This document shows, piece after piece, positions 3,291-60,095 of a stretch of DNA of 64,000 nt. The stretch lies in contig JANLHN010000007.1 of assembly GCA_024654505.1 (NCBI GenBank), positions 2,205-66,204 on the forward strand. Direction: 5' to 3'. Within the stretch, counting starts at the first letter, position 1; each line of letters begins with the position of its first letter. This DNA is from Nanobdellota archaeon. GTDB lineage: Archaea; Nanobdellota; Nanobdellia; Pacearchaeales; GW2011-AR1. The notes under the pieces are model-generated. The model made no database searches and had not been told where the DNA came from. It saw only the letters and a program-made list of their open reading frames with translations. The position numbers and the translations under genes were made by a program.

Positions 3291-3470
3291 GTCCTTTTTG
3301 ATGAATAATTTCTTTTTCGACGGCAAAGAGAAATTTTATAGAGAAATAGTATTACAATCAAAAAAAGGAGTTCTACAAGAAATAGAGGTAAGGAAAGTGA
3401 TATTTCTAGTATATGAAACTTTAAATAGTCTATTGTTTAATTTTGTTTATGGTTTTGGAAGAGGTGGGTT

Positions 3471-4685
3471 ATGAGTGTTGAATTAGGAGATATTTTTAAT
3501 TCTGCAGTAAATAATAGCCTTTTTGAAAACAAAAGTGTGCTCCAAGTTCGTTATACCCCTGAATCCATACCTCACCGGGATGAACAGATAAAGATGCTTG
3601 CAGGAATATTAGCATCTTCATTAAGGGGGGAGAGGCCAAGTAATCTTTTTGTTTATGGAAAAACAGGTACTGGGAAGACTCTTTCTGTTCAATACGTTCA
3701 AAATGAGCTTTCTAAGAAGGCAGAAGAGTTAGATGTGGATGTTAGGTTTGAATATTTAAATTGCAAATTAAAAAAGGTGGCAGATACGGAATATAGGATC
3801 TTAGCTGCTCTAATTACCCAATTAGGTGGAAGTGTTCCATCTACAGGTCTTCCCACAGACCAGGTATGGGCAAGGTTTTTGGAATTAATAGATAATAAAA
3901 AACAATTAATAATCTTTATTTTTGATGAAATAGACCAGGCCATTAAAAAAATATCAGATAATTTTCTTTATTCTTTAACAAGAATCAATCAAGAACTTAA
4001 TTTAGCTCAAATTTCTATAATTGGTATCTCTAATGATGTAACTTTTTTAGAAAATATAGACCCTAGAGTTAGATCCTCTTTAGGAGAAGAAGAATTTGTT
4101 TTCCCTCCTTATAATGCCTTACAATTAAGAGACATCCTAAACAATAGATGTAAAGATGCGTTTAAAAAAGAGGTAATTTCTGAGGGCGTTATTGAAAAAT
4201 GTGCTGCTTATGCCGCTAGAGAACATGGAGATGCTAGAAGGGCATTAGATTTGTTAAGGATTGCGGCAGAACTTTCGGAAAGGGACGGAAAAAGTAAAGT
4301 TTCAGAAGAATATATTGATTTAGCCAATTTAAAAATGGAAAGGGATAAGATTTTAGATATAGTAGAAAGTGAACCCAAACAATTTCAATTGGTACTTTAT
4401 GCTATAATGAAATTAGATAAATCTGCAAAAGATGAAAATTCAAAGAAATTCTACACAGGAGATGTTTATAATAGCTATCAAGAGTTATGTATTAAGACAA
4501 AAACCGATGTATTAACTCAAAGAAGGATTTCAGATATTTTGGCGGAAATTGATATGTTAGGTCTTATTAATGCAAAAATAATTTCTAAAGGAAGACATGG
4601 AAGGACAAGAGAGATAAAATCTTCAATACCCTCAAGTTTATTTAAAAAAGTAGAGGCAATCTTATTAGATTCTCTCTGTCTTTAA
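3471..4685 (+). CDS. cdc6: Orc1/Cdc6 replication initiator
   Basis: 404 aa. Walker A GKTGTGKT, Walker B IFIFDEID, sensor region GDARRALDLLR and a C-terminal winged helix. Archaeal Orc1/Cdc6 length and layout. Confidence 0.95.
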   Translation: MSVELGDIFNSAVNNSLFENKSVLQVRYTPESIPHRDEQIKMLAGILASSLRGERPSNLFVYGKTGTGKTLSVQYVQNELSKKAEELDVDVRFEYLNCKLKKVADTEYRILAALITQLGGSVPSTGLPTDQVWARFLELIDNKKQLIIFIFDEIDQAIKKISDNFLYSLTRINQELNLAQISIIGISNDVTFLENIDPRVRSSLGEEEFVFPPYNALQLRDILNNRCKDAFKKEVISEGVIEKCAAYAAREHGDARRALDLLRIAAELSERDGKSKVSEEYIDLANLKMERDKILDIVESEPKQFQLVLYAIMKLDKSAKDENSKKFYTGDVYNSYQELCIKTKTDVLTQRRISDILAEIDMLGLINAKIISKGRHGRTREIKSSIPSSLFKKVEAILLDSLCL

Positions 4686-4717
4686 ATAAAACAACTTAAA
4701 ATATCCTAGAGATATCC

Positions 4718-4792
4718 CTGAGGACAATTCCCAAAATACCATGTGAAATGGTTCAATAGAGAATTGTTTTCGCACTGAGGACAATTCCCAAA
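4718..4792. repeat. Two exact 18-bp direct repeats (CTGAGGACAATTCCCAAA) between cdc6 and the PolD small-subunit gene
   Basis: Copies at 4718-4735 and 4775-4792, a 57-bp period. The second copy ends 28 nt before the ATG at 4821. Confidence 0.9.
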
Positions 4793-4820
4793 GGAATGTA
4801 GTTTCCTCAATTTTATCAAA

Positions 4821-6374
4821 ATGGCATCAAAAATAATGACTTTGTGTATGGGAAAGGGCTTTTTATTAGATAAAGAGATGTTAGATTTCCTTTCTGGCTT
4901 GACTGAAGAGGGTGTGGAAGATGTTATAGATGTTCTGGGAAACTTAAAACTTGGAGAAAGAGTCATTACTAAACGATTATTTATAGAAAATTTTGAAAAA
5001 ATTCGTAATTTTTTAATAGAACTTCATGGAGAAACGGAAATTAAGACTTTTTTTGAGGGATTAGGATATACAAAAGAAGATACCCAAGAAAAAGTCTCGG
5101 AAGAGGGGGCCCCCCTTAGGCCGGGAAAAGTAAAACTCATATCTTCTCCTGCATTTCCCCAAAAAAAAATAGAAGTTAGAGATTTTGTTGACCATTTTAG
5201 GTCTAGATATGAGTATATGAGAGATGTTTTGAGCTCCGCAGATGTTGAAAATCTTAGTTCTATAAGAAAAATTGGTTCTGAAAGAGGAAGTTATACTATA
5301 ATTGCTATGGTCGTAGAAAAAAGAATAACAAAAAACAAAAATCTTTTTATAAAAGTAGAGGATTTGTCGGGGAATATTATGGTTTTAATAAACCAGAACA
5401 AGAAAGAGGTTTTTGAAAAGGCAAAAGACTTATTATTAGATGATATTGTCTCTTTTAATGTAACTGGGACAAAAGAAATGTTGTTTGCGAATGATATAAT
5501 TTTCCCAGAAGTGATTTTAGCAGAAAAAAAGTATAGTTCTTTTGATGAATGTGCTGTTTTTTCCTCTGATTTTCATGTTGGTTCCGCAAAATTTTTAGAA
5601 AAGAACCTTTTAAAATTCATAAGGTGGCTGAATGGGGTAGAAGGTGACAATTTACAAAGGGAATTGGCTAAAAAGGTGAGATATCTTTTTTTAGTGGGAG
5701 ATAATGTAGATGGTATTAGTGTATTCCCCGGCCAGGAAAAAGAACTTAAGATTCTAGATCTAAACAAACAATATGAAAAATTGGTAGAATTACTAAGATT
5801 AATCAGAAAAGACATTAAAATTATCATTTGTCCTGGGCAACACGACGCAGTTTGGATAGGTGAGCCTCAACCAATAATTGGAGAGGATTGGGCCCCAGGC
5901 CTTTATAGTATGGAAAATGTAACTCTTGTTCCCAATCCTGCATGGGTAGAGATTGATGGAAATTTTAAAGTTTTGATGTATCATGGGGCGAGTATGCATG
6001 GAATAATAGAAGAAATTCCAGAACTTAGATTAAAATATGGACATGACAGCCCTACAATGGTTGTTAAAGAAATGTTAAAAAGGAGACATTTAGCCCCTAT
6101 GCATGGATTATGTGATTATATCCCTTGCAAAAAAGACCCTCTTTTAATATTTCCAATTCCAGATATTATTGCTACAGGAGACCAACATAGGAGTGAGGTG
6201 GCAGTTCATAATAATATTCTTTTAATTGCCTCTTCTTGCTGGCAAGAAAAGACGGCTTTTGAAGAAAAAGTTGGAAATAATCCAGAACCATGTAAGGTAC
6301 CAATTCTTAATTTAAAAACTAGGGAGATTAAAATATTAGACTTTTCTGATGATGTTAAAGGGGGAGGGGAATAA
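4821..6374 (+). CDS. dp1: DNA polymerase II (PolD) small subunit DP1
   Basis: 517 aa. OB-fold region followed by calcineurin-like phosphoesterase motifs (SDFHVGS, GDNVDG, PGQHD, GDQH). Followed immediately by DP2. Confidence 0.9.
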   Translation: MASKIMTLCMGKGFLLDKEMLDFLSGLTEEGVEDVIDVLGNLKLGERVITKRLFIENFEKIRNFLIELHGETEIKTFFEGLGYTKEDTQEKVSEEGAPLRPGKVKLISSPAFPQKKIEVRDFVDHFRSRYEYMRDVLSSADVENLSSIRKIGSERGSYTIIAMVVEKRITKNKNLFIKVEDLSGNIMVLINQNKKEVFEKAKDLLLDDIVSFNVTGTKEMLFANDIIFPEVILAEKKYSSFDECAVFSSDFHVGSAKFLEKNLLKFIRWLNGVEGDNLQRELAKKVRYLFLVGDNVDGISVFPGQEKELKILDLNKQYEKLVELLRLIRKDIKIIICPGQHDAVWIGEPQPIIGEDWAPGLYSMENVTLVPNPAWVEIDGNFKVLMYHGASMHGIIEEIPELRLKYGHDSPTMVVKEMLKRRHLAPMHGLCDYIPCKKDPLLIFPIPDIIATGDQHRSEVAVHNNILLIASSCWQEKTAFEEKVGNNPEPCKVPILNLKTREIKILDFSDDVKGGGE

Positions 6375-6375
6375 A

Positions 6376-9300
6376 ATGGATAATAGGTTAAATGTTGAAG
6401 ACACAGAGAAATATTTTGAAGAGCTAGGCAACAGGGTGAAAGAGGAATACATTATTGCTAATGGGGCGAGGTCGAAAGGGTTAGACCCTGTTAATCGTGT
6501 TGAAATTCCCTTAGCAATGACTATGGCAGAAAAGTCTGTAGGGTTAATAACCACCATTTACCCAGACCTTCCTGTAGAGTCAATTACTGAGCGTATGCTT
6601 CAATTAGAAAAAGAATATGGTCAATTAGATACTTCTGTTAGTTTTTTTATTGCGAAGGAAATTGCGGAAGAGAAGTTTTGTAAATTTAAAGATCAATTAG
6701 AGGCAATTGATGCCGGTCTTAGGGTAGGTTTTGCATATATTACTTTAGGGGTTGTGGCATCTCCAATAGAAGGATATACTGGCCTTGAGCTAGGGAATAC
6801 TAGGGATGGTAAAAAATATTTTATTGCAAGTTTTAGTGGACCTATACGGTCTGCAGGAACTACTGCAACCTGTGTGTTTTTAATGCTTCTTGATTTTTTA
6901 AGAGAACATTTTGGTTATGCAAAATATGATCCCGATGAAAGAGAAATAAAAAGATATGTAACTGAAAATAGAGATTATCATGAGAGAGTGACTAATCTTC
7001 AATATTTCCCTACAGAGGAAGAGATGACATTTTTAGCTAAAAATTTACCAATACAAATTTCTGGAGATCCTACAGAGAAATTTGAAGTTTCTAATTACAA
7101 AGATTTAGATAGAGTTTCTACAAATTTCATTAGGGGAGGTATGTGTCTTACTTTTAGTGAGGGGCTTGCACAAAAGGCACAAAAGGCAATGATGAGGTTA
7201 GAGTCCCCAAAAAAAGCGGGACTTAAATGCACTGGGTGGGATTGGCTTAAAGATTATATTGAGTTACATAAAAAGAGAGAAAAAGGAACAAAAGATGTTG
7301 TTGCAACTTATATCAAAGATTTGGTGGCGGGAAGACCTGTTTATGGTCACCCTGGTGCTGCCGGAGGATTTCGATTTAGATATGGGAGAAGTAGAGTTGC
7401 GGGTTTCTCTGCAGTTTCAATTCACCCAGCTACAATGGGAATCACAAATGGCTTTTTATCTCATGGAACTCAATTGAAAATTGAAAAGCCTACAAAGGGG
7501 TGTATTATAACTTCTTGTGATAAAATTGATGGACCTATAGTTAAATTGAGGAATGGATCTGTGAGAAGAATTTCAGATTTTGAAGAGTCAAAAAGAATTT
7601 ATAAAGATGTTGAAGAAATAATCTATTTAGGAGATATTCTCTTTCCCTTAGGAGATGTTATAGATAGAAATGCGGCATTACCTAAACCAGGTTATGTTGA
7701 AGAGTGGTGGGAGTTAGATGTGGATGAAAAAACAAGTGTTATTGGTGAAAAGAAAGATTTTGATTCTTTCAAATTAAGTTTGGAAAAGGCTGAGGAAATC
7801 AGTAAGAAATATTTTGTTCCTCTCCATCCAAAATATATATTCTATTGGAACCAAATATCTTCAGAGGCCTTTTTTGAATTAATGAACTGGATAAAAAAGG
7901 CAGTTTGGAAGGGAGGAGGGGAGGGAAAGTTAGTTTTTCCTTGGGAGAATTCTATTAGAGAAGAATTTGCCGCGGCAAAAAGGGCATTGGAAATTTTGGG
8001 AGTGGAACATCAAGTAGTCTTAGATAATATAGTTCTTGATAAAGACTCCAAACCTTTTTTAATAAATATAGGTATATATAATTTAGCTGATGGAGAAAGT
8101 CTAAAGAAAAAATCTATAGATATAATAGAAAAAGCCAAAGGTATAGAAAATGTCTTAGAAATTATAAACCTTCTTTCAAATTATAAAATAAAAGATAAGG
8201 CGGGTACATTTATCGGGACTAGGATGGGTCGTCCAGAAAAGGCCAAACTTCGTAAGTTGACTGGTAGTCCAAATGTTCTCTTTCCTGTTTCAGAACAGGG
8301 AGGGAGATTAAGAAGTGTCCAGGCAGCGGTAGAATTAGGATATATTCGGTCAGATTGGCCCCTTTTTCATTGTAATTGTGAGCCTGGAGGTTATGAAACT
8401 CTTTACCCGATTTGTGAAAAGTGTGGAGAAAAAACTATAAGAAAATATTATTGTAGAGAATGTAGAAAAGTGATGGACGCTGAATGTAAGGATCATGAAC
8501 GTAGTAGTCCTTCTTCTCGGAGGAATATTGATAGTAAACATTATTTTGAGAATGCTGCAGAAAAAATAGGGTATAAAAATTATGAAATTCCTCCTTTAAT
8601 TAAGGGTGTGAGGGGAACTAGTAGTGAGGGTCATGAGGTAGAACATTTAGCAAAGGGGATTTTGAGGGCCAAATATAATTTAGCAGTGAATAAAGATGGA
8701 ACTGTGAGATATGATGGAACTGAAATTCCCTTGACTCATTTTAAACCTTTTGAAATAAGAACAAGTTTAGAGAAATTAAAGGGTTTGGGTTATACAAAAG
8801 ATCTTTATGGAGAGCCCCTTCTAAGGGAAGATCAAATCTTAGAATTGAAGCCTCATGACATTGTACTTCCCTCTTGTTCCGTTACTACTGATGAAAAAGC
8901 CGATGATGTTTTTTTTAATCTAGCGAATTTTGTAGATGAGGAATTAGAAAAATTTTATGGTGTTAAAAGATATTACAATTTAAAGTCTAAAGAAGATTTG
9001 ATTGGACACCTTGTTGCTTGTATGGCTCCCCATAATTGTGCAGGTGTTATTGGGAGAATAATTGGATTTAGCGAATTACAAGGTCTTGTGGCTAGCCCTT
9101 ATATGCATGCAGCTATGAGGAGGGATTGTGATGGTGATGAGGCCGCAGTTATGTTATTGATGGATGTCTTAATTAATTTTTCTAGGAAATTTTTGCCTAG
9201 CCATCGCGGAGGAACTCAAGATGCCCCTTTAGTTTTAAATGCGAGAATCCGTGCAGGAGAGGTTGATGACCAGATTTTGTCTTTTGAGGTTTGTGACCAT

Positions 9301-9876
9301 TATCCTTTAGAAGTTTATCGTTTGGCTGAGCAAGGAAAGCACTCTTCTGAATGTAAAATTGAAACAGTATCAGATAGGTTAAAAGAAGGAAGGGACCCCT
9401 TTACATCTACAGGATTTACTCATGACTCTAGTGATTTCAATTTAGGTGTTCTGAATGGGGCTTATAAAATTTTACCTACTATGAGAGAAAAAGTTGAAGG
9501 GCAAATGGAGTTAGTGGGAAAGATTAGGGCAGTAGACACTGAAGATGTAGCAAGACTAATTATAGAGAGACATTTTATCAGAGATATAAGGGGAAATCTT
9601 AGAAAGTTTTCCCAACAGAGGTTCAGGTGTGTGAAGTGTAATGAGAAATTTAGAAGACCTCCCTTAATAGGAGTATGTACAAAATGTGGAGGAAAAATAA
9701 TATTTACAATTAGTGAGGGTTCAATTAAAAAATATTTAGATCCTGCAATGGTTTTGGCAGTGAACTATAATATTTCTGCATATACTAAACAGGGGATGGA
9801 ATTGACAAAAATCTATATTGAAAGTATATTTGGAAAAGAAAAAGATAAACAGGTTGAGTTAGAGAAGTGGTTTTAA
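6376..9876 (+). CDS. dp2: DNA polymerase II (PolD) large subunit DP2
   Basis: About 1166 aa from the ATG at 6376, which is preceded by GGGGAGGGG; the tracked ORF begins at 6349. Cys clusters (CEKCGE..CRECRK, CVKCNEKF..CTKCGG) and MRRDCDGDE. The length argues against an intein. Confidence 0.95.
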   Translation: MDNRLNVEDTEKYFEELGNRVKEEYIIANGARSKGLDPVNRVEIPLAMTMAEKSVGLITTIYPDLPVESITERMLQLEKEYGQLDTSVSFFIAKEIAEEKFCKFKDQLEAIDAGLRVGFAYITLGVVASPIEGYTGLELGNTRDGKKYFIASFSGPIRSAGTTATCVFLMLLDFLREHFGYAKYDPDEREIKRYVTENRDYHERVTNLQYFPTEEEMTFLAKNLPIQISGDPTEKFEVSNYKDLDRVSTNFIRGGMCLTFSEGLAQKAQKAMMRLESPKKAGLKCTGWDWLKDYIELHKKREKGTKDVVATYIKDLVAGRPVYGHPGAAGGFRFRYGRSRVAGFSAVSIHPATMGITNGFLSHGTQLKIEKPTKGCIITSCDKIDGPIVKLRNGSVRRISDFEESKRIYKDVEEIIYLGDILFPLGDVIDRNAALPKPGYVEEWWELDVDEKTSVIGEKKDFDSFKLSLEKAEEISKKYFVPLHPKYIFYWNQISSEAFFELMNWIKKAVWKGGGEGKLVFPWENSIREEFAAAKRALEILGVEHQVVLDNIVLDKDSKPFLINIGIYNLADGESLKKKSIDIIEKAKGIENVLEIINLLSNYKIKDKAGTFIGTRMGRPEKAKLRKLTGSPNVLFPVSEQGGRLRSVQAAVELGYIRSDWPLFHCNCEPGGYETLYPICEKCGEKTIRKYYCRECRKVMDAECKDHERSSPSSRRNIDSKHYFENAAEKIGYKNYEIPPLIKGVRGTSSEGHEVEHLAKGILRAKYNLAVNKDGTVRYDGTEIPLTHFKPFEIRTSLEKLKGLGYTKDLYGEPLLREDQILELKPHDIVLPSCSVTTDEKADDVFFNLANFVDEELEKFYGVKRYYNLKSKEDLIGHLVACMAPHNCAGVIGRIIGFSELQGLVASPYMHAAMRRDCDGDEAAVMLLMDVLINFSRKFLPSHRGGTQDAPLVLNARIRAGEVDDQILSFEVCDHYPLEVYRLAEQGKHSSECKIETVSDRLKEGRDPFTSTGFTHDSSDFNLGVLNGAYKILPTMREKVEGQMELVGKIRAVDTEDVARLIIERHFIRDIRGNLRKFSQQRFRCVKCNEKFRRPPLIGVCTKCGGKIIFTISEGSIKKYLDPAMVLAVNYNISAYTKQGMELTKIYIESIFGKEKDKQVELEKWF

Positions 9877-20884: not shown

Positions 20885-20908
20885 AAAGTAACGGCGAAGC
20901 CGTTTCGA
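20885..20908 (+). repeat. Orphan copy of the tRNA-linked hairpin element core
   Basis: AAAGTAACGGC-GAA-GCCGTTTCGA. Same stem (AACGGC/GCCGTT) and flanks as the copies at 59871-59893 and 50759-50780 (minus strand), with a different 3-nt loop. Confidence 0.7.
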
Positions 20909-50004: not shown

Positions 50005-50355
50005 CTATTTTTTCTTTTTGGAGAGGTTAGAATATTTTTGTGTAGCGTTTAGTCTACTTTGTGCTTTTTGTAGTTTATGTTTGGCTTTTCTATCAGTAAG
50101 ATTTGATTTTAAATGCTCCTTTATACCGGCTACTTTCTTCTCTGCATTTTCTAAGTTCTCATTTCTTTCAATACCTAGTTCTGTTAAATACCTCTTTAGT
50201 TTTTTTCCAAATACTTTTGTGGTTGGAATCCCATATTGGTCTCTAAGGATTAGTCCTATTTGGGAAGGGGCGTTTTTTTCTGCGAGCTCTGCTATAACTT
50301 TTTTGAGCTCTGACTCATTTATTTTAACCCATGTTGGCTTTTCCAATTTTACCAT
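50005..50355 (-). CDS. rps15: Ribosomal protein S15 (uS15), short form
   Basis: SQIGLILRDQYGIP and the HLKSNLTDRKAKHKL..SRL pattern. 116 aa; lacks the usual basic N-terminal segment. Confidence 0.8.
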   Translation of the reverse strand: MVKLEKPTWVKINESELKKVIAELAEKNAPSQIGLILRDQYGIPTTKVFGKKLKRYLTELGIERNENLENAEKKVAGIKEHLKSNLTDRKAKHKLQKAQSRLNATQKYSNLSKKKK

Positions 50356-50640
50356 GTTATATCTGGGAAAAATTGGTTTTTAAAGTTAAGGGTAGGAGAC
50401 AGTCCCACCAGTGCTCGCAATTTGCATTTCGCAATCAGATATTTCTCTATTAGATTACTCGAAGTAACTTCAAAGAAGTTTCATGTTTTTCTCCAAGGAG
50501 AAAAGAAGCGAATTGCTCGTCGAACCTCCAAGTTCTCATTCTCTCCATATAGCCCCGCCGACTCACGCCTAGGTCTGCGATTATCTATTTTATTTGTCCA
50601 GACCTAAACGTTCGGGATTCGATTTCGAATTCTGGAATTA

Positions 50641-50660
50641 ATGCTATCTTGAGATAGCAT
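50641..50660. repeat. Perfect palindrome (9-bp arms) immediately 3' of tRNA-Gln
   Basis: ATGCTATCT-TG-AGATAGCAT. Confidence 0.9.
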
Positions 50661-50661
50661 A

Positions 50662-50734
50662 TAGCCCCGCCAGGATTCGAACCTGGGTCCCAGGCTTCAA
50701 AGGCCTAGATCCTTGACCGCTAGACTACGGGGCT
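50662..50734 (-). tRNA. tRNA-Gln (anticodon TTG)
   Basis: Minus strand reads AGCCCCG-TA-GTCT..GGAT-C-TAGGC-CTTTGAA-GCCTG-GGAC-CCAGG-TTCGAAT-CCTGG-CGGGGCT-A. 73 nt, no encoded CCA. Confidence 0.9.
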
Positions 50735-50736
50735 AG

Positions 50737-50796
50737 TATTTTTGCCACGTTGTCTTCTCGAAACGGCCCTGCCGTTACTTTAGACTACGGGGCTAG
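50737..50796 (-). repeat. 44-nt conserved hairpin element plus an exact 16-nt copy of the tRNA-Gln 5' end
   Basis: Minus strand reads CTAGCCCCGTAGTCTA (50796-50781), then AAGTAACGGC-AGG-GCCGTTTCGAGAAGACAACGTGGCAAAAATA (50780-50737), then the same 16-mer (50736-50721) starting the tRNA. Confidence 0.9.
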
Positions 50797-50902
50797 TGTA
50801 ATTATGAAAGAATGGGATGATTTTTAAGGTTTATGTAACATAAACAATGGCCAAATCATAGACTCTCTAAAGGTTTTGATGGGGGGTTTTAATATGGAGG
50901 GG

Positions 50903-51505
50903 CTAGTGTTTATATCTTCCCCTTCTTTCTACTTCTTTTAACCTTTCCAGAACCTCATTCTTTTCTTTCCATTTGTAACTCTTTAGAAAGTTTTTGAAAA
51001 GGTCTTCGTGGTTCTGGAAATGTTTTGCTTCGAGTGCTTGTTTGATGAGGTGTATATCAACGGCTTTGTCTTCAATTTTTGCAGATATAAACCCTAGGCC
51101 AAAGTCAATTAAGAAAACTTCGTTATCTTTTAAAATTGTGTTGGAGGTTGTGAGGTCTCCATGGATAATATTGTTTTGGTGGAGAAGTGCTGTCTGATGC
51201 CCTAGTTTTTCCATTGTTTGGTATTGCTTTTCTTTTGGATAGGAGTTTAGAGTTTCTGAGAGTCGGTCTCCTTCGATAAATTGGATTTGTAAATTGTGTT
51301 TGTCAACAGATATGACTTCTGGAACATTTATTTGTAAGGCGAGAGCTTTGGTTAAGATTTTTGCTTCACACTTTGTTCTTTTGTTTCTTATTTGTTCATC
51401 AAGAATTGGATGACGATAAGATTTTGATGTTCTCTCTTTTGAAATGATTTTGTCTGATAGAAATATTTTAGCTTCGGCGCCTTGGGCTATTAGTTGTGGT
51501 TTCAT
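50903..51505 (-). CDS. bud32: Bud32/PRPK-type atypical kinase (KEOPS subunit)
   Basis: 200 aa. GAEAKIF, catalytic HGDLTTSN, IDFGL. Confidence 0.8.
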   Translation of the reverse strand: MKPQLIAQGAEAKIFLSDKIISKERTSKSYRHPILDEQIRNKRTKCEAKILTKALALQINVPEVISVDKHNLQIQFIEGDRLSETLNSYPKEKQYQTMEKLGHQTALLHQNNIIHGDLTTSNTILKDNEVFLIDFGLGFISAKIEDKAVDIHLIKQALEAKHFQNHEDLFKNFLKSYKWKEKNEVLERLKEVERRGRYKH

Positions 51506-56052: not shown

Positions 56053-56083
56053 GCCTCCTGCATAGCTCAGTTGATAAAGCGCA
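56053..56083 (+). repeat. Degenerate copy of the 5' third of tRNA-Thr
   Basis: GCCTCCTGCATAGCTCAGTTGATAAAGCGCA compared with tRNA nt 1-28 GCCTGCATAGCTCAGTTGATAGAGCACA. Differences: a 3-nt insertion and two substitutions. Confidence 0.85.
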
Positions 56084-56116
56084 CTTCGTTTGCGATATCA
56101 CCTCGCTTGTGGGAAT

Positions 56117-56189
56117 GCCTGCATAGCTCAGTTGATAGAGCACAAGTTTTGTAAACTTGGGGTCGGGGGTTTGACTCCCTCTGCAGGCT
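56117..56189 (+). tRNA. tRNA-Thr (anticodon TGT)
   Basis: GCCTGCA-TA-GCTC-AGTTGATA-GAGC-A-CAAGT-TTTGTAA-ACTTG-GGGTC-GGGGG-TTTGACT-CCCTC-TGCAGGC-T. The T loop is atypical (TTT instead of TTC). Confidence 0.85.
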
Positions 56190-56202
56190 TATTTCTTTAA
56201 AC

Positions 56203-56297
56203 ACTTGACAGTCGGGGGCGAACAATTTGCTTTGAGAAAATAAATGTTAAAATCTTTTTCGAGATGCAAATTGTGAGGTGACTCCCTCTGCAGGCTT
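56203..56297 (+). repeat. Interrupted copy of the 3' part of tRNA-Thr
   Basis: ACTTGACAGTCGGGGG (56203-56218) resembles tRNA ACTTGGGGTCGGGGG. Next comes a hairpin, ACAATTTGC (56222-56230) paired with GCAAATTGT (56266-56274). Then an exact 18-nt GACTCCCTCTGCAGGCTT (56280-56297) identical to tRNA 56173-56190. Confidence 0.85.
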
Positions 56298-59855: not shown

Positions 59856-59914
59856 GACCCTGTAGTCTAAAGTAACGGCCTAGCCGTTTCGAGAAGACAA
59901 CATGGTTATAGACT
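59856..59914 (+). repeat. Exact 15-nt copy of the tRNA-Val 5' end plus the 44-nt conserved hairpin element
   Basis: GACCCTGTAGTCTAA (59856-59870), then AGTAACGGC-CTA-GCCGTTTCGAGAAGACAACATGGTTATAGACT (59871-59914), then the same 15-mer (59915-59929) starting the tRNA. Confidence 0.9.
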
Positions 59915-59985
59915 GACCCTGTAGTCTAATGGCAGTACGTATCGTTGACTTCGATGAGGCCCAAGTTCGATTCTTGGCAGGGTCA
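59915..59985 (+). tRNA. tRNA-Val (anticodon GAC)
   Basis: GACCCTG-TA-GTCT-AATGGCA-GTAC-G-TATCG-TTGACTT-CGATG-AGGC-CCAAG-TTCGATT-CTTGG-CAGGGTC-A. Irregularities: one D-stem mismatch and a pyrimidine at position 37. Followed by a T5 run. Confidence 0.8.
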
Positions 59986-60095
59986 TTTTTCTATGAAACT
60001 TACTAAGTTATAATATTGTTAGTAACTAACTTAGTAAGTAATTAACTAAGAAATATTTATAAGTGGGCTTTTCTTGTAATCTCTTAGAGGATTGT

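Follow-up and report, generated by a model that had tools for sequence, protein, structure and literature searches.

Structured units with partial tRNA copies flank tRNA-Gln in a Nanobdellota archaeon: candidate insertion modules at tRNA ends

Results

The tRNA-Gln locus

We analysed a 64,000-nt stretch of contig JANLHN010000007.1 from a Nanobdellota archaeon (hereafter the window), in which a tRNA-Gln(TTG) gene, set among the genes for a RIO kinase, SRP54 and ribosomal protein S15, is accompanied on both sides by short structured units that carry copies of the adjoining tRNA end. The coordinates of the gene, the units and related features are collected in Table 1; related loci and contigs are referred to by L numbers.

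A direct repeat, ACTAGCCCCGTAGTCTA, lies at 50797-50781 and again at 50737-50721 on the minus strand, with a start-to-start distance of 60 nt. The initial annotation, which was made from the sequence alone, had described it as a 16-mer self-copy of the tRNA 5' end; the copy is present at both places and its actual length is 17 nt. The claim of an exact 14-nt copy of the tRNA 3' end was correct as it stood: GGCGGGGCTATATG occurs at 50671-50658 and at 50559-50546 on the minus strand, spaced by 112 nt. The spacers between the repeats measure 43 nt on the 5' side and 98 nt on the 3' side, and neither contains an open reading frame (ORF) or any remnant of an integrase or other element gene. Because the gene is complete, has the normal order and is accompanied by partial copies without a promoter of their own, a split or permuted tRNA gene is ruled out.

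For a census of such copies we took 101 tRNA genes with full flanks from the window and 80 related loci, and counted exact matches of at least 12 nt to the tRNA's own end. The 5' end was copied upstream in 7 of the 101 genes and the 3' end was copied downstream in 22, whereas the reciprocal arrangements that served as controls, a 5' copy downstream or a 3' copy upstream, were never seen (0 and 0). Since these controls were empty and the architecture is repeated in many independent assemblies, chance and assembly artefact are ruled out. Simple tandem duplication is also ruled out, because the spacer is no copy of the upstream flank.

Table 1 Features of the window discussed in the text
Feature	Position	Strand	Basis or remark
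Stand-alone P3 cassette, AAGTAACGGCGAAGCCGTTTC	20886..20906	+	intergenic, no tRNA adjacent; new to this analysis
Trailer unit B, older	about 50400..50545	-	arms near-identical to tRNA-Gln unit 1 of L002; new to this analysis
Nested insertion, 40 nt, CTTC-flanked, in apical part of unit B hairpin	50465..50504	-	R1 21.1 bits
Trailer unit A	50546..50661	-	left part homologous to trailer units of L005, L016, L052
tRNA-Gln(TTG), complete, uninterrupted	50662..50734	-	ARAGORN; Rfam RF00005 61.7 bits
A-rich linker, inverted copy to mature 5' end	50735..50743	-	linker 2-10 nt across family
5' leader unit (rod)	50742..50794	-	covariance model R1 73.4 bits, E 1.8e-16
P3 hairpin cassette, AAGTAAC-GGC-AGG-GCC-GTTTC, 21 nt	50760..50780	-	inner stem covaries across genomes
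Outer direct copy, tRNA-Gln positions -3 to +14, 17 nt exact	50781..50797	-	repeat search, spacing 60
TATA-like box TTAAAAA, tRNA-Gln promoter	50821..50827	-	33 nt ahead of outer copy nt 1
Third partial copy of tRNA-Gln start, 11-nt match, ACACTAGCCCC	50899..50911	-	repeat search; new to this analysis
tRNA-Thr(TGT) locus, same two-sided layout	56053..56297	+	new to this analysis
Sister 5' leader unit of tRNA-Val(GAC) (gene 59915-59985)	59856..59908	+	R1 74.4 bits

The 5' leader unit

The initial annotation had regarded the 5' spacer as a 44-nt element shared with the tRNA-Val leader, with a constant stem, a variable loop and flanking copies that follow the local tRNA. All of this is borne out by the wider comparison. 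The core GCCGTTTCGAGAAGACAAC is found in the window only at these two sites (0 expected), the stem is conserved and covaries while the loop varies, and in every family member the outer copy fits its own tRNA, be it Gln, Val or Glu. Fifteen members, drawn from genomes and metagenomes, were aligned without difficulty and follow one order: tRNA nt 1-14; AAAG(T/C)AAC, a variable stem-loop and GTTTC; (GA/AT)GA-AGAC-AA with a 6-7-nt complement to nt 7-1; and the linker. Exact identity to the tRNA extends over 15-19 nt, with nt 1-14 as the common core, and in 22 of the 53 alignment columns the core positions that do not derive from the tRNA are the same in all genomes and tRNA types.

The end of the spacer, which had gone unnoticed before, is an imperfect inverted copy of tRNA nt 13-1. 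Because its AGAC pairs with GUCU (nt 10-13), the tail as a whole is such an inverted copy and the unit closes as a rod. In the tRNA-Gln rod, helix P1 joins nt 2-7 of the outer copy to CGTGGC (50749-50744), P2 joins GTCT (50785-50782) to AGAC (50755-50752), and P3 is formed by the hairpin cassette. RNAfold gives the rod both as the centroid structure of the precursor and as the minimum-energy fold of the leader alone, and it is supported by covariation: 85% of the cells in the alignment are paired, 8 pairs have changes on both sides, the covariation score was reached by none of 500 shuffles, and slid registers fall to 31-50% paired. The inner stem of P3 covaries at pairs 22/30 and 23/29, appearing as GGC/GCC, AUC/GAU, GG/CC, GC/GC or AG/CU. 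In P1, pair 5/48 is unpaired in 12 of the 15 members, and the pair of nt 1 is usually weak (G-U). On the tRNA strand, G-U pairs outnumber A-C pairs by 10 to 2. Covariation in the outer helix may come in part from descent from different tRNAs. The recurrent U opposite nt 5 speaks for a common ancestral tail that was adapted to each tRNA. The whole precursor has two alternative folds, in which the acceptor stem contains the inner copy or the outer one, and these are no more than ~1.6 kcal/mol apart.

Two other identities were considered and rejected. Derivation of the P3 stem from the cognate anticodon stem is ruled out, as the match holds for tRNA-Gln only. An integron attC-like site, suggested by the AAC...GTT ends, is ruled out by the RYYYAAC/GTTRRRY consensus and by size.

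Promoter position

The promoter survey compared 95 related tRNA genes without a leader unit with 13 unit-bearing loci. A TATA-like box starts 29-34 nt upstream in 71 of the former, whereas at all 13 of the latter the nearest such box lies 73-94 nt before the tRNA, that is, 29-34 nt before the outer copy. At tRNA-Gln of the window, the TTAAAAA box is where the initial annotation had placed it, and the upstream context resembles that of the empty loci L003-L005. A promoter inside the unit that would serve the inner tRNA is ruled out: at none of the 13 unit-bearing loci is the inner gene preceded by a TATA-like box at 20-40 nt, and core and tRNA are not a constant distance apart.

Because the promoter precedes the outer copy, the 60-nt leader is most likely transcribed, and the position of the promoters makes transcription through the units probable at the other loci too. 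Reports of RNase P of the ribonucleoprotein type cover essentially every archaeal group, DPANN among them (PMC6380272), and removal of the leader by this enzyme would therefore be plausible. A processing stem formed by leader-trailer pairing is ruled out, as no complementarity was seen by inspection.

3' trailer units

On the downstream side the initial annotation had listed three separate elements. All of them exist, as parts of a single conserved trailer unit (unit A), beyond which an older second unit (unit B) is found. The supposedly perfect palindrome at 50641-50660 has two perfect 9-nt arms around a centre, CA, that is not palindromic, and the hairpin given as 8 bp has longer arms, 50565-50577 against 50599-50611, which are 13 nt long and 85% complementary. 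Unit A thus contains the palindrome with its 9-bp arms (50660-50641), inverted as well as direct copies that resemble the T-loop (50635-50609), and a hairpin in which 50609-50599 pairs with 50577-50567 and which is set between C-GA-AC and GU-GA-G; the unit closes with the exact tRNA 3'-end copy and 4 nt of flank (50559-50546). Unit B has a T-arm-like segment and a double-GA hairpin of the main trailer family, with its 5' arm at about 50521-50505 and its 3' arm, CGAAATGCAAATTGCGAG, at 50431-50414; a decayed 3'-end copy, CTGGTGGGACT (50411-50401, 2 mismatches), follows just ahead of the S15 promoter. The insertion nested in the hairpin of unit B holds an inverted P3 cassette (plus strand 50462-50482), a further feature that had been overlooked.

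In many relatives, trailer units of this main family lie behind genes for tRNA-Thr, Gln, Lys and Val. Their order is constant: the 5' half of the T-arm is copied first in inverted and then in direct orientation, the hairpin comes next, and the T-loop/T-stem 3' strand and the acceptor 3' strand are copied last. When 11 hairpins were aligned and folded by RNAalifold, 16 pairs were obtained, 12 of which show compensatory changes. The hairpins share four invariant GA dinucleotides, which make up two tandem-GA motifs 12 alignment columns apart on each strand; the 12-column stretches between them pair with each other. Within the window, the trailer hairpin motif occurs only at two tRNA trailers.

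L002, L004, L016 and L035 have arrays of two or three trailer units. In the window, L002 and L016, decay is further advanced in the outer copies, and the two units of L004 are near-identical save for unrelated apical loops. The 3' duplications span 11-28 nt; exact 3' copies group at 11-14 and at 17-22 nt and start at the acceptor strand or in the T-loop.

The second trailer hairpin of the window belongs to the tRNA-Thr locus, whose layout is two-sided like that of tRNA-Gln, while tRNA-Val has the layout on its 5' side. A decayed 5' pseudo-copy (56053-56116) precedes the tRNA-Thr gene (56117-56189), and in the trailer behind it a double-GA hairpin of the main family is accompanied by an exact copy of the 3' end, 19 nt long (56279-56297). 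The pseudo-copy consists of nt 1-26 with a CCT insertion, followed by an internally deleted tRNA-like remainder that ends in the acceptor-complementary UGUGGG.

Known RNA families were searched for as well. Rfam 15 gave only tRNA matches at 50350-50950, the other hits being far below the gathering scores with E-values of 0.02-6. Neither C (RUGAUGA) nor D (CUGA) boxes, which with single-stranded guides would mark a box C/D small RNA like that of the tRNA-Trp intron, were seen in the leader and trailer sequences by inspection. A C/D box, H/ACA or canonical K-turn identity of the GA motifs is ruled out, because box sequences and bulge geometry do not fit.

Distribution of the units

The covariance model of the 5' unit (R1) was run over 1.07 Mb of related DNA and found 7 full-length units, all directly before tRNA-Gln or tRNA-Val; full units were not dispersed as copies of a DNA transposon or a miniature inverted-repeat transposable element (MITE) would be. 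Pattern scans of GTDB genomes and JGI metagenomes likewise gave real copies only before tRNA-Gln, Val and Glu of DPANN contigs, the other hits being unrelated and contextless. An exact-match scan with a 30-mer of the window itself gave no match, and because the looser pattern scan also missed both units of the window, its genome is probably not among the GTDB representatives. When the proteins of both flanking genes were looked up by exact identity, no second assembly of the strain turned up. Two scans of IMG/VR for a viral or plasmid origin returned only unrelated sequences with no tRNA context.

The initial annotation had supposed that the insertion could be polymorphic, and this is what the relatives show. 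Most orthologous tRNA-Gln and tRNA-Val loci are empty, and there the same promoter context directly abuts the tRNA. Before tRNA-Gln, the contigs L108 and L097 have one unit, whereas L107 and L118 have three in tandem, although the flanks of these one- and three-unit strains are 99.8% identical upstream (over 2.6 kb) and 97.5% identical downstream. The extra tandem units have the same flanks as the first unit and different inner stem-loops. The core exists in two subtypes, CGAGAAGAC with a GGC/GCC stem and CATGAAGAC with varied stems. Each of them is found at Gln, Val and Glu, and both copies in the window are of the first subtype; cores have therefore moved between tRNA loci. The outer copies range from exact to four differences in L047, where the outer copy reads AGCTCTA, the tRNA AGTCCCG, and the tail still largely pairs with the outer copy; diverged copies are also present in L041 and L106. 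This range is consistent with insertions of different ages.

Cassettes also occur outside the leader units. The pattern AAGTAAC-N5-13-GTTTC has four copies in the window against 0.08 expected, two of them beyond the two leader units. Two protein genes enclose the stand-alone cassette AAGTAACGGCGAAGCCGTTTC, which follows a T-rich stretch and precedes the next promoter. An octamer, TTTCGAGA, is found four times in the window, three of these in tRNA flank units (50756-50763 and 59887-59894 in the two leader cores, 56257-56264 in the Thr trailer hairpin), which hints at a shared recognition motif.

Upstream of tRNA-Gln, the third partial copy of the tRNA start, ACACTAGCCCC, opens a ~75-nt segment (about 50830-50905) that is absent from the upstream sequences of L003, L004 and L005. 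The TAG of this copy is the stop codon of the RIO-kinase gene in the window; in L003, L004 and L005 that gene ends ...AAACACTAA directly ahead of the promoter.

We also observed flank elements of other kinds in the relatives. Leader inserts of ~44 nt that differ from the family lie between promoter and tRNA-Gln in L028, with CCCATAG...CTATGGG pairing, and in L038, L039 and L040, with a D-arm-like TAGTCTAGGGACTGGACC and a UUCG-type hairpin. In L106, a DPANN contig of 43% G+C, a tRNA-Met(CAT) at 3380-3600 on the minus strand is flanked by copies of 23 nt (5') and 28 nt (3') whose spacers are of another kind, and its leader again contains UUUCGAGAU and the acceptor-complementary CAGACC. Conserved inverted repeats of the AACTTACTAAGT type adjoin tRNA-Val in the window (59998-60064, plus strand) and in L010, L012, L022 and L052; those of the window have perfect 13-nt arms (59998-60010 and 60027-60039) and lie between tRNA-Val and a 610-aa ORF that has no Pfam match.

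Search for splice motifs

A brute-force search for bulge-helix-bulge motifs (two 3-nt bulges, a 4-bp helix) with cuts at equivalent positions of the two copies found none in five precursors and recovered the positive control, L066, and an intron spliced between the repeats is thereby ruled out. At about 7860-7957 of L066 and about 12060-12163 of L075, the tRNA-Gln contains a ~25-nt insert that has the look of a genuine intron, with the helix CCGU/GCGG and the bulges AG|A and AA|U, laid out as exon, AAG, hairpin and a segment complementary to the exon; ARAGORN places the 5' end of these genes wrongly.

Genomic setting

The gene content of the window is archaeal (SRP54, FtsY, S15, RIO kinase, GINS-associated nuclease, Cdc6, PolD) and its G+C content is 34%; the source is a DPANN archaeon of the Pacearchaeota/Woesearchaeota type. 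The nearest SRP54 loci come from metagenome-assembled genomes labelled Pacearchaeota, Woesearchaeota or Nanoarchaeota, in which the Val/Thr/SRP54/Gln synteny is conserved. Cdc6/Orc1 and then both subunits of DNA polymerase D are encoded at 3471-9876 on the plus strand, and the window is for this reason probably next to a replication origin. The tblastn span of SRP54 is ~600 nt longer in L002, L011, L015, L027, L028, L037 and L059 than in the window, which suggests an insertion (an intein or another insert) in the SRP54 gene of those relatives.

Discussion

We favour the interpretation, with slightly more doubt than confidence, that the units are non-autonomous insertion modules peculiar to this DPANN lineage, which regenerate the tRNA end and stack up. 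It is favoured because several features combine: the strict association with tRNA ends, copies derived from the target, empty sites, copy-number change, stacking, nested and stand-alone cassettes, and cores shared between loci. According to this model, a 60-bp module would have entered between the promoter and tRNA-Gln, consisting of a copy of nt 1-14, the 21-nt cassette, the imperfect inverted copy of nt 13-1 and the linker. In the rod, the inverted copy would take up the spare 5' copy by pairing and so leave the acceptor stem to the real 5' strand. The rod could lock the spare copy away in this manner because transcription reaches the leader before the tRNA, and such sequestering could account for the fact that no units survive but those with an inverted copy. 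The leader would be cut off by RNase P, and RNase Z would probably share in the removal of the units. On the 3' side two modules would have accumulated, the exact copy next to the gene and the decayed one further out. The modules may arise by duplicative insertion at the DNA level or by template switching, always restoring an intact gene, and recombination between the direct copies may delete them precisely. They would be selfish or nearly neutral and non-autonomous, and would not be introns.

Several points weigh against such modules. No gene for a transposase, integrase, Cas1 or reverse transcriptase was found near any copy, and the ORFs scanned for them (30, covering part of the window) were housekeeping or unassigned. 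By inspection, the 44-nt 5' insert has no terminal inverted repeats at its ends, and the arms of the trailers are inverted but internal. Copy number per genome is very low, and the spread in length of the 3' duplications seems unlike the fixed stagger of a transposase. A simple target-site duplication does not account for the tRNA-specific inverted copies in the units, tandem units have near-identical flanks with unrelated apical stem-loops, and the conservation of the core fits a selected function as well as mobility. The same can be said of the trailer hairpins of L002, in which orthologues are more alike than paralogues. We found no account of such units in the literature searched.

It is possible, though we think it unlikely, that the units instead work in cis on the pre-tRNA, and that selection maintains the leader rod and the double-GA trailer hairpin as RNA structures, which probably bind protein. 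They might influence how the adjacent tRNA folds, is processed at its 5' or 3' end, is kept stable or passes quality control, or they might be set free as small RNAs matched to the tRNA, for instance decoys or spare parts. Selection of this kind would agree with how strongly the sequence at positions of non-tRNA origin is conserved from genome to genome and among the Gln, Val and Glu loci, with the compensatory changes in P3 and in 12 of the 16 trailer-hairpin pairs, with the four invariant GA dinucleotides, and with the conserved P1 defect at pair 5/48. The units also lie inside the transcription unit, G-U exceeds A-C on the sense strand, P1 pairing is largely kept in L047 although the outer copy has diverged from the tRNA, and the motif UUUCGAGA is common to the leader and trailer families, with three of its four hits in the window in tRNA flanks. 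A function is harder to reconcile with the patchy occurrence at 7 and 22 of 101 tRNAs, most close relatives having no units at the same tRNAs, and with near-identical strains that have one copy or three. Outer copies decay, cassettes are also found inverted or away from tRNAs, and the units match no Rfam family, have no C/D boxes and by inspection lack canonical K-turn geometry, while the two pre-tRNA conformations are isoenergetic with no obvious switch design. Unlikely too, in our estimate, are two bolder proposals taken as one: a new class of cis-encoded, tRNA-matched structured RNAs for the folding, processing or protection of pre-tRNA in ultra-small archaea, made up of a leader rod that would mimic an acceptor/D-arm minihelix and of the trailer hairpin with its two tandem-GA motifs, or an undescribed recombination system that adds units at tRNA ends in a CRISPR-like manner, in which case tRNA ends would be growing arrays.

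Scars of integration are improbable, in our judgement. By this account, plasmids or viruses with an integrase would have entered the T-loop, the 3' end or the 5' part of the tRNA, duplicated an attachment core and later been lost save for remnants of their arms; arrays would reflect repeated integration at one site. Williams reportedly distinguished in 2002 the sublocations that integrases use within tRNA genes, and the 3' copies of 11-14 and 17-22 nt, with their starts at the acceptor strand or in the T-loop, resemble these. The exact 17-nt and 14-nt repeats of the tRNA-Gln ends have the form of attachment-site repeats, direct repeats of tRNA ends being a known signature of integration, as at the PYG1 island at tRNA-Gln of Pyrococcus yayanosii (21 kb, with 44-bp repeats and a partial Gln-TTG copy at its flanks; PMC9897764), and a model of the same kind was proposed for a tRNA-Thr fragment of Caldiarchaeum (PMC3293823). 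The newest unit adjoins the gene, as such integration would have it. Against this stand spacers of 44 nt on the 5' side and about 40-180 nt on the 3' side, which hold no remnant of a gene and are of uniform size and structure at many loci and in many genomes, unlike remnants of random deletion. The tRNA-like parts inside the units follow each host's own tRNA variant, and exact IMG/VR scans for both motifs gave no genuine copy. A 60-bp circle, moreover, is an implausible substrate for a recombinase. Still less credible, and very improbable to our mind, is an origin from former or incipient non-canonical introns, that is, D-loop or T-loop introns bypassed by re-duplication of an exon, or leaders that become introns once the inner copy is deleted. 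The insertion points after nt 14 and within the T-loop match reported positions of non-canonical archaeal introns, related cores in different tRNAs recall intron transposition, and in the more distant Woesearchaeota L066 and L075 an insert after nt 10 of tRNA-Gln has a similar layout and does form a bulge-helix-bulge. At the locus studied here, however, a contiguous 73-nt tRNA-Gln follows the insert instead of an interrupted one, and downstream tRNAs are complete elsewhere too. The inner copy is kept in all family members, no bulge-helix-bulge with cuts one repeat period apart was found in the five precursors searched with L066 as a recovered control, and arrays and copies away from tRNAs would be unexpected.

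Partial tRNA copies beside tRNA genes are usually taken as scars of large integrated elements, whereas here the same signature comes from structured modules of 44 to about 150 nt at several tRNAs in many DPANN genomes. If mobile, as we prefer to think, the modules would be among the smallest target-regenerating elements known and would offer a route by which tRNA genes gain leaders and pseudo-exons, and perhaps also turn into split genes or take up non-canonical introns, a question of long standing since Nanoarchaeum. If functional, they would bring two further RNA motifs into the pre-tRNA biology of minimal-genome organisms. In practice, the units can mislead tRNA annotation and searches for the attachment sites of integrated elements in metagenome-assembled genomes.

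Comparison with known systems

The units resemble several known systems in part. As in attachment-site duplications, a complete tRNA stands beside a direct partial copy of its end, events stack, and insertion regenerates the gene. Known cases of that kind enclose kilobases of DNA and an integrase, whereas the units described here are non-coding, measure 44 to about 180 nt and form conserved structured families that also have inverted copies of tRNA segments.

In tRNA-Leu genes, integrases of the Cas1 family (casposon or CRISPR-repeat) duplicate 14 bp of the 3'-distal part (PMC4779613). The 5' units share with them a long target duplication (14-15 nt) at a tRNA end, and repeated insertion next to the gene resembles the leader-proximal gain of spacers. 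Unlike those systems, our locus has no Cas1-family gene among the 30 window ORFs scanned, no terminal inverted repeats, interrelated 44-bp inserts, and 3' duplications of 11-28 nt.

Non-canonical introns with a bulge-helix-bulge are alike in their D-loop and T-loop positions, in the related inserts found in different tRNAs and in the pairing of a segment of the insert with the 5' exon; here the gene is uninterrupted, there is no bulge-helix-bulge, and removal would be by end-processing rather than splicing. The split tRNAs of Nanoarchaeum equitans, a member of the same GTDB phylum, also have tRNA pieces beside sequence complementary to another part of the tRNA, whereas our pieces stand beside a complete gene, without a promoter of their own and with no trans-splicing helix evident. 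The units lack one defining feature each of attachment duplications, non-canonical introns and split tRNAs, and apparently one of Cas1-type duplications as well. Compared with MITEs and hairpins like the repetitive extragenic palindromic (REP) elements, they are nearly confined to tRNA flanks, very low in copy number and equipped with much longer direct or inverted target copies; they share with these the nature of small non-coding hairpin repeats, one of which is nested in the loop of another hairpin and whose presence varies between strains.

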